Part shown: piece by piece, positions 12,453 to 64,000 of the stretch
How the letters are laid out: the number at the start of each line of letters is the position of its first letter
How positions within the stretch are numbered: position 1 is the stretch's first letter
Assembly: GCA_003483065.1 (NCBI GenBank)
Contig: DMWY01000008.1
Coordinates: 2,177 to 66,176, forward strand
Source: Candidatus Moraniibacteriota bacterium
GTDB lineage: Bacteria; Patescibacteriota; Minisyncoccia; Moranbacterales; UBA2206
Direction of reading: 5' to 3'
Length of the DNA stretch: 64,000 nt
The notes under the pieces: generated by a model
Database searches by the model: none
The model's input: only the letters and a program-made list of their open reading frames with translations
What the model was told of the DNA's origin: nothing
Position numbers and translations under genes: made by a program

Positions 12453-12477
12453 AAGATTAAAAAATTTAATACTTATA

Positions 12478-12626
12478 GGACTTACGCATTTGCTTACGTC
12501 AAGATATGCTTGTCGCAAAAGCAACTATAAAATGCAACAATTCGCCAGTAATTAAAAACTGTTTAGGAAAAATATTTTTCTGGCGACTGCGTTAATATCT
12601 TTTCCGCAATCAAACGCGTAAATCCT
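12478..12626 (+). repeat. MITE-like element copy 2 (149 bp; shares only the termini) immediately upstream of tyrA
   Basis: GGACTTACGCATTT at the left end and AAACGCGTAAATCC at the right end. Interior unrelated to copies 1 and 3. Confidence 0.45.
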
Positions 12627-12639
12627 GAATTATATTTTT

Positions 12640-48061: not shown

Positions 48062-48147
48062 AAGTCGTTTTTTTGTGCTATAATTAATATATTACAGTAT
48101 TTTAGCATAGTTTTCAAATAGTACTAATAATTAATAAAATAAAAAAT

Positions 48148-48765
48148 ATGAACAGTGCAGAAGAAAATAAACCCGAGCCACAACAAGAGGATGAAAATAT
48201 AATAGAAGCTTCAGTAGTAGAAGAAGGGACTGAGGGTTCAGAAAGAAAAAGTCTTCAAGAGATAGGTAATGAAAGAAAATCTGCTTTATTCAATAAGGGA
48301 AAAGAAGTATTTGGAAAAACAAAAAATGGAATACTTGAGGGATTGAGTTGGCTTAAGAAAAAAGCTGGCGCAACCGTGGACTATGCTTTTGCTGCTCCAG
48401 AAGCAATCCAAAGAGGAGCAGAAGCAACAAAAGAGGGTGCTGTAAAAGGAATTAACGCAACAGTAGACGCTGGAAAATTTGTTGGTGGTAAAATGAAAGA
48501 GGGTGTGGAGCATACAACGAGAATTGCTACAGAAAAATTTGATGCCCTAATGGCAAGAGGGAAACAAACTGGTGAAAATTTGAAATCAAGGGGCAGAGAA
48601 GCTAAAAGTAAGTTTGATAATTGGCGCAACGAAAGGAGTTTGGGAAAATTGCGACAACAAGAAGGTTCTCTTTGGGAACAAATTAATCCGTTAGTTCAGG
48701 AATACCAAAAAATCAGGGAAATGAGAATTAACATGGAAAGAAAAATGGCTGGCCAAGCTATTTAA
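48148..48765 (+). CDS. Hypothetical protein (helical, Lys/Glu-rich)
   Basis: No recognisable catalytic motif. Confidence 0.35.
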   Translation: MNSAEENKPEPQQEDENIIEASVVEEGTEGSERKSLQEIGNERKSALFNKGKEVFGKTKNGILEGLSWLKKKAGATVDYAFAAPEAIQRGAEATKEGAVKGINATVDAGKFVGGKMKEGVEHTTRIATEKFDALMARGKQTGENLKSRGREAKSKFDNWRNERSLGKLRQQEGSLWEQINPLVQEYQKIREMRINMERKMAGQAI

Positions 48766-48796
48766 TTAGGATTTAATAAAAATAAAAAATAAAATT

Positions 48797-49171
48797 ATGA
48801 CTAAAGAAGAATTAATAAAATATATAAACGAAAATACTTTTCTGGAAAGTAATTCGAAAAATAAATATCTATCCATGCTAAATGAGGAAGAAATAGATGA
48901 TTCAAAAATATTAGACGTGCTTAATTTAATAGAAGATGAAATTCAAGGAAAAATTGATGCTAAATTCAAAGAAGCTGGTGTTGAACTGGATGAAAATGAT
49001 CCTGAATATAAAGCAAAGCACGCAGAAATGATGAATGAAATGCAAGCGGCTGAAGATGAATTCAATGTGGAAATGGGAAAAATTGACAAGGAAGTTTCCG
49101 AGGTGCAAAAAGAAGCTTCGCAGCAATTAGATGATATAAAGGCGCAAGCGGTGAGATCATCTATGGAATAA
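48797..49171 (+). CDS. Hypothetical acidic coiled-coil protein
   Basis: Terminator at 49190-49219 (ATACCGGC tataat GCCGGTAT then T8). Confidence 0.35.
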   Translation: MTKEELIKYINENTFLESNSKNKYLSMLNEEEIDDSKILDVLNLIEDEIQGKIDAKFKEAGVELDENDPEYKAKHAEMMNEMQAAEDEFNVEMGKIDKEVSEVQKEASQQLDDIKAQAVRSSME

Positions 49172-49302
49172 TTTGGCTATAAAATAGGAATACCGGCTAT
49201 AATGCCGGTATTTTTTTTGTGATGAAAGCTCATATGCTAAATAGCAGTAGTGTAGTATAATTATTATTGCGAAATATAAAGTAAAAAATTCAAGTATTAT
49301 AA

Positions 49303-50588: not shown

Positions 50589-50742
50589 AAATAGTTGATT
50601 TATTTTTAAATATATGATAATATCTTTCTATCATTGAAAGGTGCCCTGCTAAGGCATTTTTTATTGAACTATATGCCGCGTTCGTCCCCGCCTCGCGTCG
50701 ACGAGCGGTCGCCTCCGCGAGTCGAGGCGGGTAGCCCAATTT

Positions 50743-51003
50743 ATGAATAACTATTTTATATATTTATTAATAAGTCAGGATAAGCAGAGAACGTATACGG
50801 GATTTACTGATAATATAGAAAATAGGATAAAAAAACATAAAACCAAAGGCGTTAGAACAACAAAAAATTTCGGTGATTTCGGTTATATAATATTAGAAAA
50901 AGTTTTGCCTGACGAAAGACTTGCAAGAGAAGCTGAAAAATATTGGAAGTCTGCCTCTGGTAGGAGAAGGATAAAAGAAATATTAAAAAATAAAGAAGAT
51001 TAA
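50743..51003 (+). CDS. GIY-YIG nuclease family small protein
   Basis: YIYLLISQDKQRTYTGFTDNIENRIKKH matches the GIY...YIG core with a conserved Arg and a C-terminal Glu (EAEKYWK). Confidence 0.8.
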   Translation: MNNYFIYLLISQDKQRTYTGFTDNIENRIKKHKTKGVRTTKNFGDFGYIILEKVLPDERLAREAEKYWKSASGRRRIKEILKNKED

Positions 51004-51007
51004 TTAT

Positions 51008-51085
51008 GCCGCGTTCGTCTAGCCCGGTCAGGACGCCAGGTTTTCATCCTGGAAATCATGGGTTCGAATCCCATACGCGGTACCA
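51008..51085 (+). tRNA. tRNA-Glu (anticodon TTC)
   Basis: GCCGCGTTCGTCTAGCCCGGTCAGGACGCCAGGTTTTCATCCTGGAAATCATGGGTTCGAATCCCATACGCGGTACCA. Cloverleaf with anticodon loop TTTTCAT. CCA encoded. Terminator hairpin at 51092-51117. Confidence 0.8.
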
Positions 51086-51114
51086 AACTTGAAAACAGCC
51101 CTTGATGGCTGTTT

Positions 51115-51143
51115 TTGATTTATCGGAGGAAGGGGGGTAGAAT
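51115..51143 (+). promoter_or_regulatory. Conserved island promoter module, copy 1 (TTGATT, 17 nt, TAGAAT)
   Basis: TTGATT tatcggaggaagggggg TAGAAT GGAAGTGTTCAGT. The G-rich spacer and the first transcribed nucleotides are conserved in copies at 53095 and 53498. A second promoter (TTGCCT, 17 nt, TATAAT at 51195-51223) follows in the same leader. Confidence 0.6.
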
Positions 51144-51249
51144 GGAAGTGTTCAGTGAGGATTGGAAAAAATAAAGTTATCCACAGCTCAAAAGTTGCCT
51201 AAAATATCACAGAGTGATATAATATCATCATAACAAACTAAATAAAGTT

Positions 51250-51582
51250 ATGAAAAACAAATATAGTTCACTCGTCATTTTTGAAGATTTTAGGATTCGT
51301 CGTCACTACGACGAAAAAACGGAAACCTGGTATTTCTCGGTAATTGATATTGTTGCCGCTTTGATAGAGCAAACAGAATATAATAAGGCAAAAACATATT
51401 GGACTACTCTCAAGAATCGTTTGAAAAACGAAAAAAGTGAAGTGGTCACAAAATGTGACCAGTTGAAAATGCTGGCTAAAGATGGAAAAATGAGAGATCG
51501 GGATAATGAAATGTCTCAATCGTTTCCATTTTGGGAACAGTTGAATTTGTCAGCAAAAGAAAAAAGATATCAAAAAATTTAA
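51250..51582 (+). CDS. Bro-N domain protein (phage antirepressor-like N-terminal domain)
   Basis: VIFEDFRIRRHYDEKTETWYFSVIDIVAAL follows the Bro-N pattern (F-x-F...iR...g..wF.a.Dva..L). Confidence 0.55.
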   Translation: MKNKYSSLVIFEDFRIRRHYDEKTETWYFSVIDIVAALIEQTEYNKAKTYWTTLKNRLKNEKSEVVTKCDQLKMLAKDGKMRDRDNEMSQSFPFWEQLNLSAKEKRYQKI

Positions 51583-51590
51583 ATTAAATT

Positions 51591-52412
51591 ATGAAAAAAA
51601 TAAACACACAAGGGCTACAAATATATACTTTTCAAAAGAATGAGGGTGACTATATCTCGCTTACTGATATGGCTAAATATAAAGATCCTGAAAGGACAGA
51701 CTATATCATTCAAAACTGGATGAGAAATTATTCTACGATAGAATTTTTAGGTATTTGGGAGAGAATAAATAACCCTAATTTTAACCCCATCGAATTCGAC
51801 GGGTTTAAAAATAAAGCAGGTTCTAATAGTTTTTCGTTGACACCGACCAGATGGATCAGCGCTGTAAATGCAATTGGAATGATAACAAAATCAGGACGCT
51901 ATGGCGGAGGCACTTTTGCCCATAAAGATATTGCTTTTGAATTCGCAACTTGGATATCAGCCGAGTTTAAACTATATTTAATCAAGGAATTCCAAAGATT
52001 AAAAATAGAGGAAACCGAAAGACTAACTCTTGGTTGGGATGCAAAAAGAGCTTTGACCAAAATCAATTATCGCATACACACCGATTCTATCAAGGAAAAC
52101 ATCGTATTGCCACAGCAACTTTCAAAAAAAGATGCAGACATCACCTATGCCAATGAAGCGGATATTTTAAACAAGGCATTGTTTGGGATGACTGCATTGG
52201 AATGGAGAATAAAAAATAAAGGTAAAGAAGGAAACATTCGAGATTACTCCGATGTATATCAACTTATTTGTCTGGCTAATCTTGAAACATTAAATTCGGA
52301 ATTTATAAAAATGGGAATGAGTCAGAAAGAGAGACTGCTCAAATTAAATGAAATAGCTATTGTTCAAATGAGGTCACTTTTGAACAATCCAACTGTGAAA
52401 AAATTGAATTAA
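51591..52412 (+). CDS. KilA-N domain protein
   Basis: N-terminal YISLTDMAKYKDPERTDYIIQNWMRNYSTIEFLGIWE resembles the KilA-N DNA-binding domain; about 150-aa C-terminal domain unknown. Confidence 0.55.
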   Translation: MKKINTQGLQIYTFQKNEGDYISLTDMAKYKDPERTDYIIQNWMRNYSTIEFLGIWERINNPNFNPIEFDGFKNKAGSNSFSLTPTRWISAVNAIGMITKSGRYGGGTFAHKDIAFEFATWISAEFKLYLIKEFQRLKIEETERLTLGWDAKRALTKINYRIHTDSIKENIVLPQQLSKKDADITYANEADILNKALFGMTALEWRIKNKGKEGNIRDYSDVYQLICLANLETLNSEFIKMGMSQKERLLKLNEIAIVQMRSLLNNPTVKKLN

Positions 52413-52416
52413 ATTT

Positions 52417-52926
52417 ATGGAAAAAGAAAATAATCTTGCCTTTATTGATGGACAAAATCTTTATATGGGAACAAGAAAAATAAAAGAACGACCATGGAAA
52501 GTTAATTTGAAGAAATTTAGAATTTTTTTGAAGGATAAATATCATATTCAGACAGCCTACTATTTTCTTGGATTTGTGAATGAGAAGAATCAAGATCTCT
52601 ATACTGAGATACAAGAAGCGGGATTTGTTTTGATTTTTAGAGAACATAATGCTGCTATGATTGGAAAGAAAAAGGGGAACGTAGATTCTGATATTGTTTT
52701 TTCTATTATGAAAAAACTATATAAAAAAGAGGTTTTTGAAAAGGTAGTATTGGTATCTGGCGATGGGGACTATAAGCAATTAGTCGATTTTCTTATCGAG
52801 GAAAAAAGATTTAAAAAAGCTTTATTTCCAAATAGAAAATTCGCTTCGTCATTATATAAAAAACTTGGGTCAGAGTTCTTTGATTTTTTAGATAGTGAGG
52901 CTATAAAAGCGAAGATTATGAAATAA
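52417..52926 (+). CDS. NYN-domain (PIN-like) putative RNase
   Basis: AFIDGQNLY ... DSDIVFSIM ... VVLVSGDGDYKQLVDFL: the three acidic clusters typical of NYN/LabA nucleases. Confidence 0.7.
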   Translation: MEKENNLAFIDGQNLYMGTRKIKERPWKVNLKKFRIFLKDKYHIQTAYYFLGFVNEKNQDLYTEIQEAGFVLIFREHNAAMIGKKKGNVDSDIVFSIMKKLYKKEVFEKVVLVSGDGDYKQLVDFLIEEKRFKKALFPNRKFASSLYKKLGSEFFDFLDSEAIKAKIMK

Positions 52927-53094
52927 AAAAAGGCTCCTTAGGCACCAACACCTTTCGGATCCTTTTCGTCTTTATGCATAAAATATACACCCAAATCAGC
53001 GAAATGTCAACAGTGCTTGAATAAACAATATTTAAACCTATTCATAATACACTTATTTAGACCAAATATTCCACAAAATTTATGAACATATTTG

Positions 53095-53123
53095 TTGGCT
53101 TATTGGGGGAAAGGGGGTAGAAT
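53095..53123 (+). promoter_or_regulatory. Conserved island promoter module, copy 2
   Basis: TTGGCT tattgggggaaaggggg TAGAAT AGAAGTGTTGA. Confidence 0.55.
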
Positions 53124-53200
53124 AGAAGTGTTGAATAATATCGAGAAAACAGAGAGTTTGCACCATTAATTGCGTAGCATAATTAATTTAAAATAAATTT

Positions 53201-53464
53201 ATGGAAAGCATGGAAAATCAAAATAAAATTTGGAAAGGTACGAATTTTTGGAAGGAAGAGATAAAAAAGGCGGGAGTTCTTGACAAGCTTAAATTTTTTA
53301 GCGACGTTATTACTGAAAATAGAGCGCCTCTTAGTTATGGCGATCCGGTTATCACGGATGTTGTGCTTGATGGAGTTGTATGTGATATATATCACACTGA
53401 CAAAAAACCAAATGACACAGGTTGCAGAATATTTATTCACAAAAAAGAGAGTACTGAAAATTAG
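53201..53464 (+). CDS. Hypothetical small protein
   Basis: 87 aa, own promoter and terminator (53475-53497). Confidence 0.35.
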   Translation: MESMENQNKIWKGTNFWKEEIKKAGVLDKLKFFSDVITENRAPLSYGDPVITDVVLDGVVCDIYHTDKKPNDTGCRIFIHKKESTEN

Positions 53465-53497
53465 AAAAATTCACAAAACCGCTATCACTGGCGGTTT

Positions 53498-53526
53498 TTG
53501 ATTTATTGGAGGAAAGGGGGTAGAAT
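53498..53526 (+). promoter_or_regulatory. Conserved island promoter module, copy 3
   Basis: TTGATT tattggaggaaaggggg TAGAAT GGAAGTGTTCAGT. The -35 is fused to the T-run of the upstream terminator, as in copy 1. Confidence 0.6.
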
Positions 53527-53564
53527 GGAAGTGTTCAGTAATTAGTTAAGTAACATACAAAAAT

Positions 53565-54083
53565 ATGAAAATTGGAATTATTTCTGACGTCCATGACAAT
53601 GGACTAAATCTTCTAAAAGCGATAGATATTTTCAAGAAAAAAGAAGTTGAGATTATAATTCATTGTGGTGATTGGGGTTCGCCTGGAGCAGCTTGGCTTT
53701 TCATGAATAATTGTGACATCAGAACAATTTCGGTTTTTGGTAATAATGACAAGGATATGTATCGTTTTTTTACTTATAAAGAAAAGTATAATTGGGATAA
53801 GTTAGAATATCATGGTGAATTTGCAAATTTAGAATTGGAAGGAAAAAAGATTGCGGTTTATCATGGAAATGTTGGCGAGATAACAGAGGCATTGATGCTT
53901 TCTGGAAAGTGGGAAACAGTAATTTCAGGCCATGATCATGTGTCAAAGATAGAATCTGTAAATGGCGTCTTACATATTAATCCAGGAACAATTAATTGTT
54001 TGAAAGCTGGGAAAATCGAGAATAATTTTACGGTTGCGATTTATGATTTAGGAGAAAATAAGGCAGAGATTATTAAGTTGTAA
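53565..54083 (+). CDS. Small metallophosphoesterase (YfcE/MJ0936-like)
   Basis: MKIGIISDVHDN, GDWGSPG, GNND, VYHGN and GHDHV motifs. Confidence 0.8.
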   Translation: MKIGIISDVHDNGLNLLKAIDIFKKKEVEIIIHCGDWGSPGAAWLFMNNCDIRTISVFGNNDKDMYRFFTYKEKYNWDKLEYHGEFANLELEGKKIAVYHGNVGEITEALMLSGKWETVISGHDHVSKIESVNGVLHINPGTINCLKAGKIENNFTVAIYDLGENKAEIIKL

Positions 54084-54189
54084 AAAAGATAGCGATAGTG
54101 ATTAAAATAAATATAAAAATATGACAACAAGAAAAAGTGAAGAAAAAAATACTTGCCCTGTTAAATAATTTTAAATTTTTTAATAGTCT

Positions 54190-54444
54190 ATGTATTACAC
54201 ATATATTTTAAGGAGTGAAAAGGATAATAAAAATTATGTAGGTTATACTAAAAATTTAAAATTAAGATTTGAGGAGCATCAAAAAGGAAAAGTTGAATCA
54301 ACTAAAGATAGAAGGCCATTGAAATTGATATATTATGAAGCATATCTAAATCAGCAGGATGCGACACATAGAGAAAAATATTTAAAAACATATCATGGTA
54401 AGATGTTTCTAAAAAATCGCCTCAAATCTTATTTAACAGGGTGA
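54190..54444 (+). CDS. GIY-YIG nuclease family small protein (second copy)
   Basis: YYTYILRSEKDNKNYVGYTKNLKLRFEEHQKGK ... the GIY-YIG core with conserved R and E. Confidence 0.8.
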   Translation: MYYTYILRSEKDNKNYVGYTKNLKLRFEEHQKGKVESTKDRRPLKLIYYEAYLNQQDATHREKYLKTYHGKMFLKNRLKSYLTG

Positions 54445-54590
54445 ATAAAATCACGAGAGTAGGAAAAACCAGCTTAGCTGTCACTATTCCAATTGAGATG
54501 TATAAAGAATTAGGCTGGAAAGAAAAACAGAAGGTGGTTGTGAAAAGAGTTAGGGGTGGGGTTGAGATTAAGGATTGGAAAAAGATATAA
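54441..54590 (+). CDS. AbrB/MazE/SpoVT-like small DNA-binding protein (49 aa, GTG start overlapping the upstream stop)
   Basis: VNKITRVGKTSLAVTIPIEMYKELGWKEKQKVVVKRVRGGVEIKDWKKI matches the swapped-hairpin AbrB pattern (vrkiGnSlgvtIP.e....l....g..v). Not in the ORF track because it is under 60 aa. Confidence 0.5.
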   Translation: MNKITRVGKTSLAVTIPIEMYKELGWKEKQKVVVKRVRGGVEIKDWKKI

Positions 54591-55375
54591 GGTTATTTAA
54601 AATGGACTTATCTTTCAATATAAAATTAGCTGACAATTATACTAGCTCATCTCAAAAGATAAGAGTTTTGACTGAGGATTGGGTTGATAGGCAAGTTTAT
54701 TGTCCAAACTGCGGGAAGTTAAGTATCGACAGATATGGAAATAATAAACCAGTTGCAGATTTTTATTGTGAAAATTGTAAGGAAGAATATGAATTGAAAA
54801 GCAAGAAGGATAGTATGGGCAAGAAAATTGTTGATGGCGCGTATAGTAAAATGATTGAAAGGCTGGATAGTGTTAATAATCCGAATTTTTTCTTTTTGAA
54901 TTATAGTTTACAAAGTTACAAGGTAGAAAATTTTGTAGTTATTCCGAAACATTTTTTTGTTCCTGAAATTATTGAAAAAAGAAAACCTCTCTCGGAAGAC
55001 GCAAGACGAGCAGGTTGGGTTGGATGCAATATTTTACTTCAAAATATTCCGCAAAGTGGAAAAATATTTTATGTAAAAGACGGAAATTTTGAAAATAAAG
55101 AAGATGTTTTGAAAAATTGGCAGAGAACACTTTTCTTGAGAGAAGAAAAAGAAATTAGTGCGAAAGGTTGGCTTTTGGATGTTATGAGTTGTATTGAGAG
55201 AATAAAAAAACAAAATTTTTCCCTAGATGAAGTTTATGCTTTTGAAAAAGAATTAAAAATAAAACATCCAGACAATAATTTTATTAAGGATAAGATGCGA
55301 CAAAAATTACAGGTTTTAAGAGATAATAATTACATTGAATTTATTAGTCCTGGTAAGTATAAATTAGTCATTTGA
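54575..55375 (+). CDS. DpnI-like methyl-directed (type IIM) restriction endonuclease
   Basis: Collinear with my recollection of the DpnI family: N-terminal catalytic domain with SSQKIRVLTEDWVDRQVYCPNCG ... PVADFYCENCKEEYELKSKK ... NPNFFFLNY ... RKPLSEDARRAGWVGCNI, and a C-terminal winged-helix-like end LQVLRDNNYIEFISPGKYKL. Needs a database search to confirm. Confidence 0.5.
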   Translation: MEKDIRLFKMDLSFNIKLADNYTSSSQKIRVLTEDWVDRQVYCPNCGKLSIDRYGNNKPVADFYCENCKEEYELKSKKDSMGKKIVDGAYSKMIERLDSVNNPNFFFLNYSLQSYKVENFVVIPKHFFVPEIIEKRKPLSEDARRAGWVGCNILLQNIPQSGKIFYVKDGNFENKEDVLKNWQRTLFLREEKEISAKGWLLDVMSCIERIKKQNFSLDEVYAFEKELKIKHPDNNFIKDKMRQKLQVLRDNNYIEFISPGKYKLVI

Positions 55376-55436
55376 CAATTATCGTGAATCGATCAAAAAT
55401 TGATCAGAAATAAAAATTAATTTTCTGTTCAATTAT

Positions 55437-55871
55437 ATGAAAATTTCAAGAGAGTTGGCGATAAGAATATTAAAATATTTAGATGAGCATAAGAATTTTT
55501 ATTTTCCATTTCTAGTTATGTGCAAAGAGCACGCTGAAGGGGATGATGATTTTATAGAAATTGAACCTGAAGAATGGGAAATGATTCAGGAAGATGATAA
55601 GTATCAAACTTTTGAGTTGTGGGAAAATCTGCAAAATTTAGATGAAGAAACGCTTAAACTTTTGGCGAAAGGATTTTTAGAGAAAATTACCAGTGAATCT
55701 TTGGAGAAAAAAATAGAAAAATTAGCGAAAAAATACAGAAAAGAATGGAAAGTGGAATTGTGGGAAAGTGAAGATATTGAAGAGTTTGGGTATAATGAAT
55801 TTATAGGCGGAAAAGCAGAAGGGTGTGAGGAATGCTTGGAGTCGATAAAAAAATATGGAAAAATAGAGTAA
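55437..55871 (+). CDS. Hypothetical acidic protein
   Basis: 144 aa, Glu/Asp-rich, no motif. Sits between the DpnI-like and KAP NTPase genes. Confidence 0.35.
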   Translation: MKISRELAIRILKYLDEHKNFYFPFLVMCKEHAEGDDDFIEIEPEEWEMIQEDDKYQTFELWENLQNLDEETLKLLAKGFLEKITSESLEKKIEKLAKKYRKEWKVELWESEDIEEFGYNEFIGGKAEGCEECLESIKKYGKIE

Positions 55872-55888
55872 ATTAAAAACGATTTAGT

Positions 55889-57163
55889 ATGGCAGATGGA
55901 TTTGTAAAAAATTATAAATTATTAGAAGAAAACAGCAAGGCTGATGATCTTTTGAATATTGGTGATTTTTGCGAAAAATTTACTAAAAAACTCAATTCAT
56001 TACCTAACTCATCGATTATTGCTTTGGTTGGAAAATTTGGTAGTGGTAAAAGTACAATGTTGCATAAAATAGCAACTAATTATTTGGCCACTTACGTATG
56101 GTTTGAATTTGATGCATGGAAATATCCGGACAGAGAAAATCTCTGGGAGGGATTTATTTTGGATTGTGTTGAAAAGATCAATCCAAATCATTTTTTAAGT
56201 GCGAAAAAAGAGATTGAAGGGAAGTCTAATGATGATAAAAAAACTTTGATTAATGTCTTATCTAAAATACCGGGGTTAGCAGTATTAGAAGGGTTTAATC
56301 ACTTTCTTGAAACATCTCCAGCAAAGCGTGTAAATGATGTACAGAGGATATTTAGAGAACAGCTCGATAATATAAAAAAAGATATTTTCGTTATCATTGA
56401 AGATATAGACAGGTCAGGCGATTCAGGCGCATTCTTTTTAGAGACGCTTAAACAATTTTTAAAATCATCTAATCTCTTAAATAAAGTTGTAATAATCGTT
56501 CCAATAGCTAATGAAAATTATTACAAAAATATCGATTCATATCTAAAGTGTATTGATTATTTTGATTTTTTTGAGCAAAAAAATATAAAATTAGATAAGT
56601 TTGTGGGCGAAGTTATAGATAACTCATTGCTCAGTGGGCAATTAAATAGAAAAGGCGATAATAAATTGATTTGGAGTGGACCAAGTAGAAAAGGGCAAAC
56701 GATTAGTTTTTTAGAAAAGCTTTTTGATGAAATGCCAGAGATGAATATGCGGTTACTTAAGTTAATATTGAGAAAAGCAAATCTGGCCTATAAAAATCAG
56801 ACTTCAGATGGACACGACCCAGATTTTCGGGTTACTTTATGCATAGAAGCATCGAAATATTTCAAAATTAATGGAAAGGAGGAATTGAGTTATTTTGATG
56901 ATTTTAGAGAAAGGGGTGTTATAATCAGAGGTAACATATTTTCCTCATTCTTAATTGCAATGTTAAATAATAAAGATTCTATTGTAGGTATTGATTATAC
57001 CAACGGAAGAGAAATCAAGAGATTATTGACATCGCCCTATGATTTTAAATTTATAAAAAGGGAGGACAATGACAAAATCCAATGGCCATCATATCCCTGG
57101 AGTTATGGCAGATTTAGTGGCGACTCTGGTTTTGGTGTGGCAAGTTTTTATTGCGAATATTAA
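55889..57163 (+). CDS. KAP-family P-loop NTPase
   Basis: IALVGKFGSGKST Walker A immediately followed by FEFDAWKYPD (the KAP F-x-x-W-x-Y motif). Walker B IFVIIEDIDRS. Confidence 0.6.
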   Translation: MADGFVKNYKLLEENSKADDLLNIGDFCEKFTKKLNSLPNSSIIALVGKFGSGKSTMLHKIATNYLATYVWFEFDAWKYPDRENLWEGFILDCVEKINPNHFLSAKKEIEGKSNDDKKTLINVLSKIPGLAVLEGFNHFLETSPAKRVNDVQRIFREQLDNIKKDIFVIIEDIDRSGDSGAFFLETLKQFLKSSNLLNKVVIIVPIANENYYKNIDSYLKCIDYFDFFEQKNIKLDKFVGEVIDNSLLSGQLNRKGDNKLIWSGPSRKGQTISFLEKLFDEMPEMNMRLLKLILRKANLAYKNQTSDGHDPDFRVTLCIEASKYFKINGKEELSYFDDFRERGVIIRGNIFSSFLIAMLNNKDSIVGIDYTNGREIKRLLTSPYDFKFIKREDNDKIQWPSYPWSYGRFSGDSGFGVASFYCEY

Positions 57164-57599
57164 TTTTCTATTGAAGAAATAAAATGTATTAATCTATGGC
57201 ATATAAAGTTATGGAAAAATTTCTAAAGCAAGGATTTAAATTGAAAGAAGATATAATAAAAAAACAACATAACTGCCAAGCAACTGGATTTTGGGTGAAT
57301 CGATCTAAGGAAAGTAATTTTCTTTTGATTATGCACGAACATCTTTTTGTGTTTCAGAAATAATTCAATACATATTCTAATACGTATTAAAATACTTACC
57401 TAAATTAGTTACTTACTTTAAGTGTAAGATTAGCGCCGGAGCGCTGTAGTATCTGTATAAATAAGTGGGTGAAGTTATGAACAAACTAACCGCCGAAGAA
57501 AAAAGAGTTATTTTGGAAAAGGTAATTTAAAATTAACAAGAAAAATATGTTTATAAAACTCTATCTCATTGCCTTGCCGGTTTTTTGCTTCAGTTTTAA

Positions 57600-58130
57600 T
57601 TGTTACATAATACAATGAAAAAAATTGAAGTTGTCGTTAATGACAAAATGCAAAAAAACTATGCTTATACTATCACAGAAAAATCTGGGGAAAATTTTGC
57701 ACCCGAATTTAAGCCGGAGTTGACCCCCAAAGAAATGCTTAAGCTTGGAATTTTTGGAGGGAGATATATACGAGATTGCAAAAAAGAATTTCCCAAAGAT
57801 TGGTTTTCAAAGGCTAAACTTTTTCCGGATGGTCTCTCTGGGCATGACAAAAATTTAAATTATTTCAAAGTAGATGCATCTCAACCCCTTTCGGTTTGGA
57901 GAAAAAAAGGATGGATTCACTCCGATGATCCAAGAGGCTGGTTTCAATGGTATTGTCGATATTATATAGGCAGAAGGCATGAGGATGATGCTCGTCAAAT
58001 TCGTCGCTGGAAAGCTTTTAGGCGTCACGTTACCCAAATTCAAAAAAATTGTTGGCAAGGAGATTTGAATTGTCGCTCAAGACAGCACCAAGCTGTGCTC
58101 CACTGGGCCTATGATAGTAGAAAATTGTAA
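57600..58130 (+). CDS. Hypothetical protein with Arg/His/Trp-rich C-terminus
   Basis: GIFGGRYIRD segment. Two Rx6H arrangements (RYYIGRRH, RWKAFRRH). No confident family assignment. Confidence 0.35.
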   Translation: MLHNTMKKIEVVVNDKMQKNYAYTITEKSGENFAPEFKPELTPKEMLKLGIFGGRYIRDCKKEFPKDWFSKAKLFPDGLSGHDKNLNYFKVDASQPLSVWRKKGWIHSDDPRGWFQWYCRYYIGRRHEDDARQIRRWKAFRRHVTQIQKNCWQGDLNCRSRQHQAVLHWAYDSRKL

Positions 58131-58278
58131 ATATAATTTTTGTTCAGTAACCCGCCTCTCATCGGCGGAAAGGCATACTAAGTAACACCAACAGCCTTCA
58201 GGGGCTGTTTTTCTGTGGGGGATTGACGAGTGAAATAGAGATGATATAATATCACCATAACAAATAAATATTAAAAAT

Positions 58279-59068
58279 ATGAACAATAATGTTTTTGAAG
58301 AAATAAAAAGAATTAATGAATATCAAAGTGAATATTGGTCGTCTCGTGATTTGGCTAAAGTGTTGGGTTATTCCAGCTACGATAAATTCCTAAATGTTAT
58401 TAATAAAGCCAAAGAAGCATGTGAAAATAGTGGTCAAGTTATCCACAACCATTTTTCCCATATGGACGAAATGGTTGAAATAGGTTCAGGCGCAAAAAGA
58501 GCAATTGATACAGTATATTTATCTCGTTATGCGTGTTATTTGATTATCCAAAATTCCGATCCATCCAAAGAAGTGGTTGCTTTGGGTCAAACATATTTCG
58601 CGATTCAAACTCGAAGACAAGAAAAATCAGATCAGTTAATAGAGGATAATAAAAGATTACATTTGCGTAGTGAAATAAAAACTCACAACACATCCTTAGC
58701 TGAAGCCGCGGAAAATGCGGGAGTTAGCAATTATGGAAAATTTCAAAATTATGGATATAGGGGATTGTATGGGGGGGCTGGACGCAAATGATATTCACAA
58801 AAAGAAAGGTTTAAAAAAATCTCAAAAAATACTTGATCATATGGGGAGCGAAGAATTGGCAGCTAACTTATTTCGCGCCACTCAAGCTGATGCAAAATTA
58901 CGCAGAGAAAAAATCCAAGGCGAAATTAACGCAAATTTGACGCATTTTCATGTCGGGCAAAAAGTTCGGCGTACAATTGAAGAATTGGGCGGAACAATGC
59001 CTGAAGAACTACCATCAGCAGATGGAATATCTGAGGCGAGGACTAGAATAAAAAAGATTAAAAATTAA
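58279..59068 (+). pseudogene. dinD: DinD-like (DNA-damage-inducible protein D / Bro-N family) gene disrupted by a frameshift at a G7 tract
   Basis: N-terminal frame (58279-58791) FEEIKRINEYQSEYWSSRDLAKVLGY ... GDPSKEVVALGQTYFAIQTR and C-terminal frame (58715-59068) ...GSEELAANLFRATQADAKLRREKIQGE... are two halves of one DinD-like protein. Deleting one G in GGGGGGG (58771-58777) joins them. Confidence 0.65.
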
Positions 59069-59114
59069 AAATTCTAAACCCATCAAATTCGACGGGTTTA
59101 ATAAAAATAATTTT

Positions 59115-59726
59115 TCATTCCTCCCACTCCAGCATTTTTCCAATTCTTGATTCCATGCGGTCGGCTTTTTGGAGATACATTATTTGCTTGCGATTCAAAA
59201 TAGGGGAGTGCTTAACGTCGGCCAGATATTCGGGGATATAGAAGATTTCTTCCTCGGTGGTCATCCAATCAAGATGATCAAAACGTTTCAAATTTATCGG
59301 AGCGGAAAAACTGCGCAGACTTTTTCGACCAGTAGTGTCAAAATATTCATGGAAATAGCTCATGGCCAATTCGCGAATGGAAGAATAGACCGGTTCGCGA
59401 TAGCGTAGAAAAACATGATTAGTTTTGGAAATGGCACCCCATTTGCCATATTTTTTGAAAACCGCCACGACATGATCAAAATCAGTTTTACTGGCCATAA
59501 GATCCAAAAGTAGGGGAGGTTGGCCATTGATGCGAAGAGCCAGCGCGGCCAGTGTGGCGCCTTCGATGCAGTGACAAACTTTTTTGTCGAGAACTGTCAT
59601 CGGCGAAAAACAAGTGTCGCCAGATTTTTCTAAATTCATTGGCATTGAATTCAAAAAAAGCTGAATCTTTTTGGGATCATCGAGGGCTTTCAAGATTTTC
59701 AATTTTTCTTTAGGAATGCCAAACAT
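59115..59726 (-). CDS. Hypothetical protein with possible Cys/His/Asp catalytic residues
   Basis: CHCIEGATLAALALR ... FDHVVAV pattern; family unassigned. Confidence 0.3.
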   Translation of the reverse strand: MFGIPKEKLKILKALDDPKKIQLFLNSMPMNLEKSGDTCFSPMTVLDKKVCHCIEGATLAALALRINGQPPLLLDLMASKTDFDHVVAVFKKYGKWGAISKTNHVFLRYREPVYSSIRELAMSYFHEYFDTTGRKSLRSFSAPINLKRFDHLDWMTTEEEIFYIPEYLADVKHSPILNRKQIMYLQKADRMESRIGKMLEWEE

Positions 59727-59728
59727 TT

Positions 59729-60685
59729 TTATTTAGCTAAAATAAAATTAAAAAGATAGCCAGTGAAAATTATTCCTGTGCCAACGACAGAGGCAAAAAT
59801 TAAAATTAATTTTATTTTCATTACTTTTCTAAGAATCATAAACTCAGGAAATGACAATCCGGTGACAGCCATCATAAAAGCCAGGCTCGTGCCAATGCTC
59901 ACACCTTTTTCGCTGAGTACGCCAACTAGTGGAATCACGCCAGCCGCGTTGGAATAGAGGGGAATTCCTAAAAGTACAGCCAAAGGCACGGCGTACCACT
60001 GGTTAGCGCCGGCGTATTGCGCGAGAAAATCCGTGGGCACATAGCCATGAATGATGGCTCCAATCCCAACGCCGATAATTATATAAACCCAAATGTTTTT
60101 TATAATCCCAAAAGTATAATTTTTGGCATAAACGGTTCTTTGTTTCCAAGAAAGCTCTGATAATTTTATCTGATTGGCAGTTTTATTTTTCTCCCCAAAA
60201 TTTTTCAATAAATTTTCTACTTTTAGTTTGCCAATAATAATTCCGGAAAAAATTGCAATGAGAAGTCCGCTTGTGACATAAAGCAGAGCAATTTTCCAAC
60301 CAAACATCCCGAGAAGCATTATCAGTGCCACTTCATTTATCATGGGTGAGGCGACTAAAAAAGAAAAAGTGGTGCCCAGTGGCACGCCGGCTTCCAAAAA
60401 ACCAAGGAACAGCGGAATGGCTGAACAAGTGCAAAAAGGAGTAATGATGCCAAAAAGTGATGCCAAGATATTGCCAAAATATTTTTTCTCTTGCGAGAGA
60501 ATCTTTCTGATTTTTTCCGGCGGGAGATATGAGCGCAGAAGAGACACGAAAAAAATAATGACGATTAATAACAAAAATATTTTAATTGTGTCATAAATGA
60601 AAAAATTAACCGCTTCAGCAAGAAGTGTTTCCGGGGTAATCTTAAAGATTGAATAAGTGAGCCAATCAGCAAAAATTTTTAGCAT
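59729..60685 (-). CDS. Putative permease of the DUF318/YraQ-like family
   Basis: Polytopic membrane protein with the conserved ITPFCTCSAIPLFLGF motif typical of this family. Confidence 0.6.
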   Translation of the reverse strand: MLKIFADWLTYSIFKITPETLLAEAVNFFIYDTIKIFLLLIVIIFFVSLLRSYLPPEKIRKILSQEKKYFGNILASLFGIITPFCTCSAIPLFLGFLEAGVPLGTTFSFLVASPMINEVALIMLLGMFGWKIALLYVTSGLLIAIFSGIIIGKLKVENLLKNFGEKNKTANQIKLSELSWKQRTVYAKNYTFGIIKNIWVYIIIGVGIGAIIHGYVPTDFLAQYAGANQWYAVPLAVLLGIPLYSNAAGVIPLVGVLSEKGVSIGTSLAFMMAVTGLSFPEFMILRKVMKIKLILIFASVVGTGIIFTGYLFNFILAK

Positions 60686-60689
60686 AAAA

Positions 60690-61967
60690 TTATTTTAATA
60701 ATTCAGCGAAATTATTTTTAGTTTCTTCAAAAAGTTTAATTTGCTCTCCGACGATTGGTTCGCCTTTAGGCAAGTCGAGTTTTAGGGGATTAACAGGGGA
60801 GCCATTGAGTTTTACTCCATAATCCAGATGCGGTCCAGTCGACCAACCGGTCGAACCAACATAGCCAATGATTTGCCCGCGACTAACATGCATACCTGAA
60901 CGCAAACCCTTGGCATAGGCGCTCAAATGTCCATAGTGGGAAGTATAGCCATTGTCGTGAATCAAGCGAATGATATTGCCCCAGCCATTTTCCCATCCAG
61001 CGCTGGCGACTGTGCCGTTGGCGGAGGCGACCACAGGTGTACCAGTCGGCGCGGCGTAGTCAATTTGATAGTGGGCGGAAACTTTTCGGGTGATTGGATG
61101 CATGCGCGCTCCCGTAAAGCCGGAAGAGATATGGCGATAGCTCAGTGGAGCTTTCAGAAATTGTCGCTCAAGTAGCCGACCTTCGGCGTCATAGTATCCA
61201 CCTTTGCCACCATTATCAAAATAGTAGGCGAAATAGCTAGTGCCGGAGTTAATAAATTTTGCGCCCAAAACTTTTCCGTCGGGCGCAACATCCCCGTCTC
61301 TCAATCGTTTCTCATAAACAATTACAAACTCATCATCTTTTTGAATTTCAGTGGTAAAGTCAATGTCGAAAGAAAAAATATCACCTACTTCCAAAACAGT
61401 GGCTTCTTGCAATCCCGCCTCCATGGCGTCGACATAAAAAAAGTTTTCAATTTTTCCTCGCGCAATACTTTGAGAAATTTCATAGGAAATTTTTTCTTCA
61501 CGCGCGCTAAACTCATCGTCTTTTCGTTCCACAATAATTAGTGCTTCATTATTTCTGTCATATTCAATGCGCTTAGTTTTTTCCTCCTCACCAAAATAGA
61601 AACGCAGTTTTTGGCCAATCTTAATATTGGTGAAATTATAAACATCTTTAGAGGCATCTAAAAGTGACACCACATCATTGGCATCCAGCTTTCCGTTTGA
61701 CTGGAAAACTTCAGCTGGAATGTCGCCAGTCGAGACTGTATATTCCACCACGCGATCAGTGTTTTTTTTCGTCTCAGCCTGCGTGGGTATCTCAGTTTGT
61801 GTAGAAATTTCTTTAGCCGATTCTTTTTCAACGAAGATGATGTTTTTTAGCCAGACGGTTCCTTTGAAAAGCACAAAAATAATAAGCAAAAAAAACAAGC
61901 CCACAAAAAGTTTTCTTCGGGTGCTATATTTTTTTACTCGCAAGTTTTGTCGCTCTCGTATTTCCAT
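60690..61967 (-). CDS. Membrane-anchored M23-family peptidoglycan endopeptidase
   Basis: M23/LytM motifs HYQIDYAAPTGTPV ... GWGNIIRLIH ... SHYGHLS ... GYVGSTGWSTGPHLDY. N-terminal TM. Confidence 0.85.
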   Translation of the reverse strand: MEIRERQNLRVKKYSTRRKLFVGLFFLLIIFVLFKGTVWLKNIIFVEKESAKEISTQTEIPTQAETKKNTDRVVEYTVSTGDIPAEVFQSNGKLDANDVVSLLDASKDVYNFTNIKIGQKLRFYFGEEEKTKRIEYDRNNEALIIVERKDDEFSAREEKISYEISQSIARGKIENFFYVDAMEAGLQEATVLEVGDIFSFDIDFTTEIQKDDEFVIVYEKRLRDGDVAPDGKVLGAKFINSGTSYFAYYFDNGGKGGYYDAEGRLLERQFLKAPLSYRHISSGFTGARMHPITRKVSAHYQIDYAAPTGTPVVASANGTVASAGWENGWGNIIRLIHDNGYTSHYGHLSAYAKGLRSGMHVSRGQIIGYVGSTGWSTGPHLDYGVKLNGSPVNPLKLDLPKGEPIVGEQIKLFEETKNNFAELLK

Positions 61968-62038
61968 AAATCTAATTATATCATAGCCACAAAAAAACCG
62001 CCCCTTGCAGGGCGGTTTAGTTTAAATACTAAAAAGTA

Positions 62039-62239
62039 TTAGATCTTTGATACGTTGACAGCGCATGGTCCTTTTGGGCTTTCGCTTACTTCGAACTGTA
62101 CCTTGTCACCTTCTCGCAGTTCTTCAAAGGTTACACCTTGAAGTTCTTTTGAATGAAAGAAAAGATCTTTGTCATTTCCTTCTCGGGAAATGAATCCAAA
62201 TCCTCGATCAGTCAATTTTTTGATTGTTCCTTGTTCCAT
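62039..62239 (-). CDS. cspA: Cold-shock protein (CspA family)
   Basis: RNP-1 KGFGFI (here RGFGFIS) and RNP-2-like FFHSKEL motifs; 66 aa. Terminator at 61995-62018 on the minus strand. Confidence 0.9.
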   Translation of the reverse strand: MEQGTIKKLTDRGFGFISREGNDKDLFFHSKELQGVTFEELREGDKVQFEVSESPKGPCAVNVSKI

Positions 62240-62362
62240 TGTGATAGAGATATAGGTTATTTAAATTGTTCCACTAGAGGCTTTGCAAAAAAGTTCGACG
62301 ATTCTTCTAACTGCAGGCTTATTGGGACTTGTAGACTAGTATACGCCTCTTTTTTGATTTTG

Positions 62363-63622: not shown

Positions 63623-63696
63623 AATAATTTCATCCTAGCATTGTTTGGAATTTTTTCCTATGCTTTTGATTTATTGAGAAAAAAAGAATGCTGAAT

Positions 63697-64000
63697 TCAA
63701 GCTACTAACGCAAATTTCTGATTATTAATTAGTTCGTAAAATTTTTCAGCAGGCGTATAATACCCCAAAGTTTTTCTAGGCCTAGCATTTAGTTTGTTTT
63801 CAACTTCTTTAATTCTTTTAACACTTACTTCTTTGAAATCAGTTCCTTTAGGAAAATATTGACGAATTAATCCGTTAGTATTTTCATTGGTGCCTCTCTG
63901 CCAAGGACTATGCGGATCAGCAAAGAAAACTTTGATTTTAGTTTCTTTGGTAAAAAGTTTATGCTGAGACATTTCACTACCACGATCATAAGTTAAGCTT
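63697..64000 (-). mobile_element. Partial IS30-family transposase gene (C-terminal portion; continues beyond the window edge)
   Basis: ADPHSPWQRGTNENTNGLIRQYFPKGTDF is the IS30 DDE-domain C-terminal signature. The ORF runs off the right end of the window. Confidence 0.7.

Follow-up and report, generated by a model that had tools for sequence, protein, structure and literature searches.

The window analysed here, a stretch of 64,000 nucleotides from Candidatus Moraniibacteriota, a tiny groundwater bacterium, contains a tRNA-Glu locus followed by a run of genes that ends at the conserved flank gene r203, which begins at 59115 on the minus strand. Unless otherwise indicated, the features described below are on the plus strand. 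The tRNA-Glu transcription unit is preceded by a promoter-like site (TTGATT-17-TAATAT) at 50595-50623, and over the approximately 80 nucleotides that lead up to the tRNA five species show no differences, as judged from invariant alignment columns. Nested in this unit is a module (50672-51086) in which an old tRNA 5' fragment, a 45-nucleotide GC-rich palindrome, an 86-amino-acid GIY-YIG gene and an intact tRNA follow each other in this order. The pseudo-tRNA fragment (50672-50686) consists of TAT plus nucleotides 1-12 of tRNA-Glu and forms a 15-bp direct repeat with 51005-51019. The imperfect palindrome (50687-50731; 80% GC, -27 kcal/mol) is directly followed by TAGCCC (50732-50737), that is, nucleotides 13-18 of the tRNA. 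The GIY-YIG #1 gene (50743-51003) encodes a stand-alone catalytic domain of the UPF0213/YhbQ-Slx1 type (Pfam E value of 6.6e-14), and its stop codon is only 4 nucleotides from the intact tRNA-Glu(UUC) at 51008-51085, which was identified by ARAGORN and scored 63 bits with Rfam. The tRNA has its terminator hairpin at 51092-51113, after which comes the left edge of the island.

Profile searches of the ORFs agreed with the preliminary description in the identity of the two GIY-YIG genes, tRNA-Glu, KilA-N, NYN, the YfcE phosphoesterase, the AbrB/MazE-like protein, DpnI, the KAP NTPase and a frameshifted DinD/Bro-N gene. The first island gene (51250-51582), previously called Bro-N, received no Pfam assignment; it is a truncated N-terminal remnant of 110 amino acids of a PDC-S13/S04-type gene (PADLOC, phrog_15286) in which only the N-terminal 80 residues match the PADLOC families. 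Its similarity to relatives stops at 51489-51497, and an intact version of 281 amino acids is found in relative L011. It is followed by genes for a KilA-N protein of 273 amino acids (51591-52412; Pfam 1.6e-19, PADLOC PDC-S22 with 415 bits) and a 169-amino-acid NYN-domain nuclease (52417-52926, Pfam), by an orphan ORF of 87 amino acids (o87, 53201-53464) that matched nothing in Pfam, PADLOC, NCBIfam or PHROGs, and by a YfcE-family metallophosphoesterase gene (Metallophos_2 by profile match, 172 amino acids, 53565-54083). The second GIY-YIG gene, GIY2 (84 amino acids, 54190-54444, Pfam), has no adjoining tRNA; its stop codon overlaps the GTG start of the 49-amino-acid AbrB/MazE-like ORF (54441-54590; PF04014, 30.1 bits). 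The next gene (54603-55375) encodes a full-length methyl-directed type IIM restriction endonuclease of the DpnI family, matching Pfam DpnI with 279 bits, DpnI_C with 110 bits and PADLOC mREase_II with 389 bits. An acidic ORF of 144 amino acids (55437-55871), without a family match in Pfam, PADLOC or PHROGs, lies 17 nucleotides upstream of the gene for a 424-amino-acid KAP-family P-loop NTPase (55889-57163; Pfam, 33.8 bits), whose PADLOC matches to QatA and PifA are weak. The 171/176-amino-acid ORF at 57615-58130 belongs to a very large and very conserved unannotated family, and profile searches matched it to no annotated one. The last gene, DinD/Bro-N (PDC-S13, 58279-59068), is interrupted by a +1 frameshift within a run of seven G residues (58771-58777); its orthologue in L010 is unbroken and encodes 264 amino acids with Bro-N and NCBIfam DinD (373 bits) matches. 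The island ends on the right with a bidirectional terminator hairpin (59074-59101).

The region had been described as a series of genes almost all equipped with a promoter and a terminator of their own, in an arrangement other than that of an operon. This proved to be overstated. Approximately seven transcription units were recognized. Of the 14 gene junctions, seven overlap or span at most 32 nucleotides, and only four clear intrinsic terminators were found in the coding-strand orientation (51092, 53475, 58190 and 59074), the first of which was recognized by eye and supported by the repeat search but is missing from the list of the terminator scan. The denial of operon organization holds only in part because three sub-operons are present, namely Bro-like/KilA-N/NYN, GIY2/AbrB/DpnI and 144-aa/KAP/55-aa. 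Promoter-like and terminator-like sites are nonetheless abundant between 48 and 62 kb, with 78 of the former vs 51 +/- 8 in shuffled sequences and 22 of the latter vs 8.3 +/- 3.

Comparison with related genomes showed that 51124-59110, between tRNA-Glu and r203, is a true hypervariable hotspot whose contents are unlike among close relatives. In L007 the site is empty: the alignment jumps from 51123 to 59111, so that anti-sigma and tRNA-Glu are directly followed by r203/ArsP, and the sigma factor is 95% identical. L009, L010 and L011 carry cassettes different from those of the window. The L009 island encodes a serine hydrolase, Fic, RadC, an ORC/Cdc6-like ATPase, a PD-(D/E)XK nuclease, NUDIX and a type II restriction-modification pair formed by a MutH/Sau3AI-type restriction enzyme and a C5 methyltransferase, whereas in L010 the DpnI, 144-amino-acid and KAP genes of the window are replaced by PDDEXK_5, a LexA-S24-C5 methyltransferase fusion, PIN_12 and peptidase S51. 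Even the strain-level contig L127, 99.86% identical over 54109-64000, carries an AntA gene where the window has NYN-o87-YfcE. Thus the gene sets at this locus differ between related genomes, and the earlier proposal of a variable accessory island that adjoins tRNA-Glu, with many nuclease genes, phage-derived genes and candidate defence genes, was upheld by these differences and by the profile matches. Variant contigs break near GIY2, at 54109 (L127) and at 54442 (L003). The L003 contig departs from the window at the stop codon of GIY2 and then carries HIT, flavodoxin and Ham1 genes; it could be an assembly chimera.

Some cassettes are much more similar between species than their surroundings. 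The NYN cassette is shared with L011 at 98.5% nucleotide identity (100% amino acid identity for the NYN protein) and YfcE-GIY2-AbrB with L010 at 97.1% (98.8% amino acid identity for YfcE), so that some cassettes reach 97-98% vs 81-89% for the core flanks. The island is also low in GC, with 32.1% vs 36.1% in the remaining window, and it lies below all other 8-kb windows (mean 35.9, sd 1.1, minimum 33.1). In addition, a 42-nucleotide promoter-like repeat is present only in the islands, with three copies in the window, two in L010 and one each in L009 and L011; it was absent from L007 and from all flanks. In the window, copy 1 (TTGATTTATCGGAGGAAGGGGGGTAGAATGGAAGTGTTCAGT) is at 51115-51156, the degenerate copy 2 (53095-53136) bounds the NYN cassette shared with L011 on its right side, and copy 3 is combined with a terminator hairpin at 53475-53539. 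The low GC content, the near-identical cassettes in diverged species and the island-only repeat are signs of recent exchange. In alignments to relatives, breakpoints 51124, 51152, 53127 and 53466 (the last one in L010) coincide with the repeats, although only about four of ten breakpoints do so.

The position of the island directly 3' of a tRNA gene, its low GC content, its phage-typical KilA-N and Bro-N/DinD genes (together with AntA in L127) and the presence of one truncated and one frameshifted gene could suggest that a prophage or integrative element once integrated at the tRNA, lost its integrase and att sites and decayed to the present island. The preliminary description offered this as one of two options, the other being a recombination-driven island, and only the latter fits our results. 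Profile searches detected no integrase in the island, as had been stated, and neither structural nor replication genes are present there. The 3' end of the tRNA is not repeated in the island or at its far boundary, the L007 site is clean, and relatives differ cassette by cassette instead of by a single block. The IS30-like rve gene (63697) lies 4.5 kb outside the island, past four conserved genes. We therefore regard a decayed element as highly improbable. An integron-like array, in which a dedicated enzyme would insert cassettes site-specifically at the 42-nucleotide repeat or the terminator hairpins, possibly at initial breaks made by the small resident GIY-YIG nuclease, would account for the repeat at cassette borders, for the breakpoints that fall on it, for the proximity of GIY2 to breakpoints 54109 and 54442 and for compact cassettes with a promoter module each. 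Yet no IntI-type or other recombinase is present, the repeat reads as a -35/-10 promoter and is neither palindromic nor similar to the attC sites of integrons, some cassettes lack it, and GIY2 is missing from the islands of L009 and L011 (in L011, up to the end of the contig). Homologous recombination at shared promoters is the simpler explanation of these data, which makes an integron-like array quite unlikely.

Turnover of the island by recombination probably occurs in two ways: entire cassettes would be replaced through recombination in conserved flanks, and cassettes would also be exchanged at the common 42-nucleotide repeat located 3' of terminator hairpins, with some illegitimate deletions adding to the changes. 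The DNA was probably taken up from related cells, and no dedicated integrase would be involved. The cargo moved in this way would comprise the methyl-directed restriction enzyme DpnI, nucleases (NYN, GIY-YIG), the KAP NTPase, KilA-N/Bro/DinD-type proteins and several orphans.

GIY-YIG #1 had been counted among the island cassettes. Its identity as a GIY-YIG protein stands, but it is a separate insertion in the tRNA-Glu gene itself. The segment 50687-51004, flanked by the 15-bp direct repeat, is precisely missing in the sister species L007, L009 and L010, and the tRNA of these empty alleles is identical to the intact tRNA that adjoins GIY-YIG #1. The same architecture was found in nine other relatives (L011, L012, L013, L014, L089, L090, L092, L094 and L096), with the palindrome at tRNA position 12, 22, 24 or 35. 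In L087 the whole 415-bp unit (92.6% nucleotide identity) is surrounded by unrelated flanks and adjoins a tRNA-Glu(CUC) from which its old tRNA fragment differs. Among 26 metagenomic relatives, 23 have a same-strand tRNA within 400 bp; besides Glu, these tRNAs include Gln, Phe and Leu (5' type) and Ser, Cys and Met in a mirror 3' type, where the palindrome and a tRNA 3' fragment are placed after the ORF. The palindrome is 88-100% conserved where ORF identity is just 57-80%, occurs in either orientation and, at a dS of about 1, shows only one change in its 45 positions. We found no description in the literature of such a small GIY-YIG nuclease insertion in a tRNA gene.

Taken together, these sequence comparisons indicate that the module is apparently a free-standing selfish element resembling homing endonucleases. 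On insertion it would duplicate part of the tRNA gene that it enters, and because of this partial duplication the essential tRNA would survive and be co-transcribed with the nuclease. The palindrome would be a conserved cis element and the distal border of the module, probably acting at the DNA level as a nuclease recognition or immunity site; its occurrence in either orientation argues against an RNA-level role. The intact tRNA equals that of the empty alleles, so that a nuclease which targeted nothing but the tRNA sequence would leave its own element without immunity. Unlike known homing endonucleases, which have a DNA-binding domain, the 86-amino-acid GIY-YIG #1 is without one.

The strong purifying selection on the ORF (dN/dS of 0.04-0.33) and its divergence, which is roughly that of the host at the same locus, would also fit a domesticated gene with vertical inheritance and occasional loss. 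GIY-YIG #1 might then be a host nuclease retained beside tRNA genes for a cellular function, for example in nucleic acid processing or repair where tRNA loci are highly transcribed; in this case the palindrome would serve as a hairpin that regulates or stabilises the transcript, and the tRNA fragment would be the scar of an old duplication. Its nearest solved relative (1ZG2, E value of 1e-5 against PDB sequences) is a member of the uncharacterized UPF0213 family, and SLX1 comes next; an RNA role has been suggested for a prokaryotic Slx1-like domain fused to a tRNA methyltransferase (PMC1564403). Evidence against this explanation comes from the precise absence in three sister species, from the recurrence of the architecture at eight kinds of tRNA, where perfect and fresh duplications lie at different junctions, from L096 and L108, in which a single tRNA gene was invaded in tandem and from two sides, and from the L087 unit in unrelated flanks. 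We consider it unlikely.

Probably, then, the locus holds two distinct things, an island (51124-59110) whose contents are exchanged by recombination and a selfish-like GIY-YIG #1 module (50672-51086). A phage-defence role of the cassettes is suggested by family membership and context: PADLOC matched mREase_II, PDC-S22 and PDC-S13/S04, of which the PDC families are only candidate defence genes, while YfcE and the 87-, 144- and 171-amino-acid ORFs have no defence annotation. The island is best read as a recombination-driven defence-island hotspot, already a known kind. For Candidatus Moraniibacteriota, the best explanation is a chromosomal hotspot of accessory genes, mostly defence-type, carried in cassettes that are small transcription units or sub-operons.

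The closest species-level relatives of the window, which were found by means of the flanking sigma factor, belong to Candidatus Moraniibacteriota/Moranbacteria in the Parcubacteria group, and contig DOSI01000002.1 (MAG GCA_003512165.1) as well as several independent metagenome assemblies showed 100% identity to it. The homologous locus was retrieved from related species and its proteins and DNA were compared with those of the window (loci and contigs fetched from related genomes or metagenome assemblies carry L numbers). In L007, whose sigma factor is 95% identical, the alignment crosses the anti-sigma and tRNA-Glu genes, stops at position 51123 and restarts at 59111; the whole island that separates tRNA-Glu from the conserved gene r203 in the window (51124-59110) is missing, and the distance between the two genes is 37 nt. 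In L009 the island contains a serine hydrolase, Fic, an AbrB-like ORF, RadC, an ORC/Cdc6-like ATPase, a MutH/Sau3AI-type restriction enzyme with a C5 methyltransferase, a PD-(D/E)XK nuclease and a NUDIX protein. L010 has in common with the window the set YfcE-GIY2-AbrB (GIY2 being the second GIY-YIG gene) and the right-hand pair formed by a 171-aa ORF and DinD, and in place of the DpnI gene, the 144-aa ORF and KAP it carries a PDDEXK_5 nuclease, a LexA-peptidase-C5 methyltransferase fusion, PIN_12 and a peptidase S51. L011 shows an intact Bro-like gene, then another ORF and then the NYN gene. Even within the species, L127 is 99.86% identical to 54109-64000 and has an AntA-domain gene replacing 52437-54108 (NYN, an 87-aa ORF and YfcE). 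A fixed position between conserved genes, differing content and one empty site are thus found together, as in a hotspot. Of the two alternatives given in the preliminary description, the variable, recombination-driven island agrees with the outcome of the presence/absence comparison suggested there. The GC content of the island (32.1%) is lower than that of the rest of the window (36.1%) and below that of every other 8-kb window, in a genome that is itself AT-rich (36% GC across the window).

Other variable sites were observed in the neighborhood. Between tsaD and the sigma factor, a segment with two ORFs of 205 and 124 aa, charged and coil-like, and a terminator (48056-49252) is a second small indel hotspot, absent from L007, L009, L010 and L011, where the alignments leap from 48055 to ~49250. 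An IS30-like transposase (HTH_38 + rve) is located on the minus strand at 63697-64000, 4.5 kb to the right of the island, and runs off the contig end; the longer assembly L123 continues beyond it into a block that also looks variable and holds genes for a serine hydrolase and a DEAD helicase besides a 110-aa ORF. The metagenome locus L003 (15140-18344, the same as L115; sample ERZ27254733) matches the window without a difference as far as the base that precedes the GIY2 stop (54442) and continues with HIT, flavodoxin, Ham1, a 173-aa ORF and an HD gene, a block that none of the other fetched loci contains. Wherever else a contig encodes the exact GIY2 protein, the context is that of DpnI, and the L003 arrangement may be a genuine rearrangement at GIY2 or a chimera produced by assembly.

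Nearly all earlier gene calls in the island were confirmed by six-frame ORFs and profile searches. An exception was the ORF at 51250, formerly called Bro-N, which had no Pfam match and corresponds to the N-terminal stump of a gene of the PADLOC candidate family type PDC-S13, intact in L011 with 281 aa. It is followed by KilA-N (51591-52412, matched over its full length by PADLOC PDC-S22), NYN (52417-52926), an orphan 87-aa ORF (53201-53464), a YfcE-type phosphoesterase (53565-54083), GIY2 (54190-54444), a 49-aa AbrB/MazE-like ORF that overlaps the GIY2 stop codon (54441-54590), a full-length enzyme of the DpnI type (54603-55375), an acidic 144-aa ORF (55437-55871), a KAP NTPase (55889-57163), an unannotated 171-aa ORF (57615-58130) and a frameshifted DinD/Bro-N gene (58279-59068). 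The latter is split by a +1 in the G7 run at 58771-58777, relative to the intact 264-aa orthologue of L010. The split was identical in all assemblies whose gene table or sequence was inspected, and the G7 tract may be slippage-prone or phase-variable rather than an assembly error. The Bro-like 110-aa ORF and the DinD/Bro-N gene showed no BLASTP similarity and therefore are not duplicates. The 171-aa ORF belongs to a very large family of more than 8000 homologues, about 70% conserved, without annotation or known fold. A hairpin in the KilA-N coding region (51785-51807, AACCCCATCGAATTCGACGGGTT) is similar to the terminator that closes the island on its right side (59077-59099, AAACCCATCAAATTCGACGGGTTT), both being united in a 53-nt repeat family with 77% identity; it may be the relic of an earlier KilA-N cassette, or it may be due to chance.

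Based on PADLOC searches, the candidate defense matches in the window were mREase_II, PDC-S22 and PDC-S13/S04, together with KAP, which gave weak QatA/PifA matches, and those in L009 and L010 were REase_II, MTase_II and SoFic/PDC-S04. By family match, then, the island is enriched in known or candidate defense genes, as in a defense island. The DpnI-like protein, which is the one that gave the mREase_II match, also matched both Pfam domains at full length (279 and 110 bits; profile positions 1-182 of 183 and 2-69 of 70) and is predicted to belong to the DpnI family (type IIM, methyl-directed), with the catalytic and the C-terminal winged-helix domains both of full length. Unlike DpnI, this candidate enzyme is preceded by the overlapping AbrB/MazE-like ORF. 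Small ORFs of this kind recur directly 5' of varied cassette genes, namely DpnI, RadC and PDDEXK_5 (window 54441-54590; L009 8036-8185; L010 12931-13050; L089 5466-5606), and may represent a shared controller or adaptor gene. In the hotspot where the window has the DpnI gene, L009 carries the MutH/Sau3AI-type restriction enzyme and C5 methyltransferase (10431-13128); the two enzyme families are both linked to GATC, in differing methylation states.

The preliminary description had attributed to nearly every gene its own promoter and its own terminator, which is too strong, as seven of the 14 gene junctions are overlapping or no longer than 32 nt and four clear terminators are present on the coding strand. 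It was right in that the genes do not form one operon; however, the close junctions define three sub-operons, and the arrangement is not fully cassette-per-gene. A 42-nt element (TTGATTTATYGGRGGAARGGGGGTARAATGGAAGTGTTCAGT), whose sequence can be read as a -35/-10 promoter in which the spacer is G-rich, has three copies in the 64 kb of the window (51115, 53095 and 53498) and no others. It directly follows a terminator hairpin in all copies except the degenerate one at 53095. The islands of L009, L010 and L011 contain this element too; L007 and all conserved flanks lack it. Four of the ~10 intergenome breakpoints fall on it (51124, 51152, 53127 and 53466). The NYN cassette shows 98.5% nucleotide identity between the window and L011, and YfcE-GIY2-AbrB 97.1% between the window and L010; for these two pairs, the identity of the conserved flanks is 81-89%. 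The mosaic is explained by homologous recombination at the common 42-nt promoter module and in the conserved flanks, along with some illegitimate deletions (at the start codon of NYN, within the Bro-like gene near 51497, and at positions 54109, 54442 and 54583); the route by which the exchanged DNA arrived is one that we infer.

Islands and prophages integrated at tRNA genes are elements with a tyrosine integrase, and the position of the island directly downstream of a tRNA gene, together with its phage-related domains, resembles them. However, no integrase or recombinase domain was found in any island ORF, at either end or elsewhere, in agreement with the earlier account. There is also no tRNA 3'-end repeat at the far border: a short-word BLAST of tRNA-Glu retrieved only a 12-nt 5' fragment at 50675. 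Since both hallmarks are missing in and beside the island, and its content varies piecemeal, a classical tRNA-integrated element is not supported, and neither is the decayed integrative element considered before. The stacked, same-strand and mostly single-gene cassettes, with a short element recurring at their junctions, are reminiscent of integron arrays. Yet IntI, attI and attC are lacking, the junction repeat is a non-palindromic, -35/-10-like element and not a folded recombination site, and units here have their own promoters whereas integrons have a single Pc promoter. The earlier observation is thus confirmed in part, and its interpretation is partly supported as a variable, recombination-driven hotspot of the defense type, neither a decayed integrative element nor a fully cassette-per-gene array.

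Defense islands and hotspots between conserved core genes have been described in Pseudomonas, E. coli and Vibrio. The island shares with them a fixed position, a content that varies among close relatives, low GC, and a wealth of restriction enzymes, nucleases, NTPases and PADLOC candidate families. It differs in its CPR host with a reduced genome, in the absence of any mobile-element hallmark, in the island-specific 42-nt promoter-like repeat at cassette borders and in its great compactness (8 kb, mostly single-gene cassettes). Genomic islands carrying restriction-modification genes have been reported in Patescibacteria (PMC12455944). Judged from its sequence, the island would fit the general picture of defense islands at fixed chromosomal hotspots.

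The region immediately upstream of the island showed a different kind of variation. There, the first GIY-YIG gene (GIY-YIG #1, 50743-51003; Pfam E 6.6e-14) precedes the tRNA-Glu(UUC) gene (51008-51085). In L007, L009 and L010, which are without GIY-YIG #1, the alignment to the window breaks off after 50686 and resumes at 51005, so that 50687-51004 is a precise insertion. It is bordered by a 15-bp direct repeat (TATGCCGCGTTCGTC) composed of three upstream bases and tRNA-Glu positions 1 to 12. The order is the old fragment (tRNA positions 1-12), a 45-nt palindrome (80% GC), TAGCCC (tRNA positions 13-18), five bases, the 86-aa ORF, four bases and the complete tRNA. This architecture recurs in other Moraniibacteriota with varying junctions. 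The palindrome lies after tRNA position 12 in L011 and L089, as in the window, after position 22 in L012, L090, L092 and L094, after position 24 in L013 and after position 35, inside the anticodon, in L014, where a different 30-nt sequence forms the palindrome. An additional and larger insertion is present in L090 after position ~10. In L096 there are two upstream fragments, the second with three palindromes, at positions 12, 22 and 35, and downstream of the tRNA a second GIY-YIG ORF is followed by a 3' fragment with insertions at position 35 and in the T-loop. On the cloverleaf the insertion points correspond to both D-loop borders, the anticodon loop and the T-loop, and in every case the ORF lies between the palindrome and the functional tRNA. 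A dispersed repeat would be expected elsewhere too, but the palindrome occurs once in the 64 kb of the window and, among all fetched loci, only beside ORFs of the GIY-YIG #1 type. It matched no Rfam family.

A metagenome scan with the GIY-YIG #1 alignment yielded 26 loci, 23 of them with a same-strand tRNA within 400 bp; only two other tRNAs were present in the remainder of those loci. Homologues with at least 53% identity are all located just upstream of tRNA-Glu. Of the more distant ones, some immediately precede tRNA-Gln, Phe or Leu and have a palindrome and a 5' fragment, and others immediately follow tRNA-Ser, Cys or Met in the mirror order tRNA, ORF, palindrome and 3' fragment, some of these in tandem. 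A protein word search with GIY-YIG #1 gave only nine close relatives. In L087/L088 the entire 415-bp unit (50672-51086) is present with 92.6% nucleotide and 97% amino acid identity, in unrelated flanks beside tRNA-Glu(CUC). Because the old fragment there (GTCGCCATCGTC) is unlike the adjacent tRNA (GCCGCGTTCGTC), it is suggested that the intact tRNA end arrived with the element. Single tRNA genes flanked on both sides, or tandemly, by several GIY-YIG ORFs were seen in L096 (2880-4100) and L108 (246-1100), accompanied by palindrome-bearing tRNA fragments, which suggests repeated invasions of one tRNA gene. A viral origin was also considered, but neither the GIY-YIG #1 alignment nor the palindrome pattern was found in IMG/VR. 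With GIY2, tblastn against GenBank phages gave weak matches only, in unannotated records.

The GIY-YIG #1 ORF is under purifying selection (dN/dS 0.04-0.33), and residues Y7, Y18, G20, R28, H32 and E65, which form the Tyr, Tyr-x-Gly, Arg, His and Glu catalytic set, are invariant across homologues. The Pfam domain occupies residues 3 to 75 of the 86, and among proteins of solved structure those closest to it are 1ZG2, a single-domain UPF0213 protein, and the structure-specific nuclease Slx1. To our knowledge, known GIY-YIG homing endonucleases also carry a DNA-binding part; none was found here, where 86 aa leave no room for it. The precise empty allele and the presence/absence polymorphism at a homologous site are, for their part, those of a homing endonuclease. 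A single palindrome position separates the window from L089, with synonymous sites near saturation (dS ~0.96), and the palindrome has the opposite orientation in the position-22 lineages; this strong sequence conservation without orientation dependence points to recognition at the DNA level. As the intact tRNAs of filled and empty alleles are identical over positions 1 to 57, any homing model needs the upstream flank in the target, or recognition of structure. A function of the pseudo-tRNA fragment as a maintained guide is unlikely, since it decays in L087, L102 and L106. We regard the module as a candidate homing-endonuclease-like selfish unit, for which cleavage and mobility are what we infer; the partial duplication would preserve the host tRNA as the module inserts, and the palindrome could be its cis element. 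A bolder reading, to which we give rather little credence, is that the GIY-YIG gene, the palindrome and the tRNA piece constitute an undescribed minimal class of selfish element that targets tRNA genes of many specificities through a cloverleaf-like DNA structure and not through sequence, rebuilds the tRNA and uses the palindrome as a cis recognition or immunity site.

A full-text search of one literature collection gave no account of small bacterial GIY-YIG genes that are combined with palindromes and tRNA fragments. Among experimentally studied systems, T4 SegB comes closest to the module; this free-standing GIY-YIG homing endonuclease is encoded within a cluster of tRNA genes, and its recognition site includes a tRNA T-psi-C motif (PMC2330249). 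Both are GIY-YIG nuclease genes among or beside tRNA genes, with presence/absence polymorphism between relatives. Unlike the phage protein, however, the module encodes an 86-aa catalytic domain of the UPF0213/Slx1 type only and resides in a CPR chromosome, and its insertion duplicates part of the tRNA and always has the GC palindrome. Group I introns are known in the tRNA genes of Patescibacteria, in a report that mentions neither tRNA-Glu nor GIY-YIG (PMC13011429). Such an intron does not account for the module, as no Rfam intron match (E <= 1) was obtained over 50672-51085 and the downstream tRNA is complete and uninterrupted. Permissive Rfam thresholds returned from the island region the tRNA and one sub-threshold match only; the sole Intron_gpI match in the scanned region, on the minus strand within the KilA-N gene (51677-51867), was a weak one (18.7 bits, E 0.36).

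Free-standing endonuclease ORFs of organelles, such as that of Allomyces atp6, bring a replacement gene end while the old end stays as a pseudogene, and AT-rich mitochondrial DNA contains mobile GC-rich palindromic clusters. These may be taken as conceptual parallels of the module, which resembles the former in that a duplicated part of the host gene keeps it intact and the displaced piece remains as a fragment, and the latter in having GC-rich palindromes at recombination-prone sites of an AT-rich genome. In contrast to both, the host is a bacterium, the host gene encodes a tRNA instead of a protein, and the palindrome is obligatory, conserved in sequence and placed at cloverleaf loop positions. 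By sequence comparison, the module would be a variant of the free-standing homing-endonuclease insertions whose new parts are the minimal protein, the CPR chromosome, the obligatory palindrome and the partial tRNA duplication.

The genomes of CPR/Patescibacteria are tiny, and these bacteria are commonly described as poor in classical defenses. On the basis of gene families, this Moraniibacteriota lineage appears to keep a dedicated, fast-turning slot for cassettes of restriction enzymes and other nucleases and NTPases. Cassettes would be exchanged there between species without an integrase, and the slot offers a concrete site to study gene acquisition in CPR cells. The module, in turn, appears to represent a compact case of a candidate selfish gene sheltering in an essential tRNA transcription unit, and the pseudo-fragments and tandem copies that it leaves affect the annotation of tRNA genes. 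If the nuclease recognizes DNA structure, this would explain how one small protein family colonizes many tRNA genes, and should the minimal-class reading be true, tRNA genes that had been invaded repeatedly would come to be flanked by fragments riddled with palindromes, as in L096.
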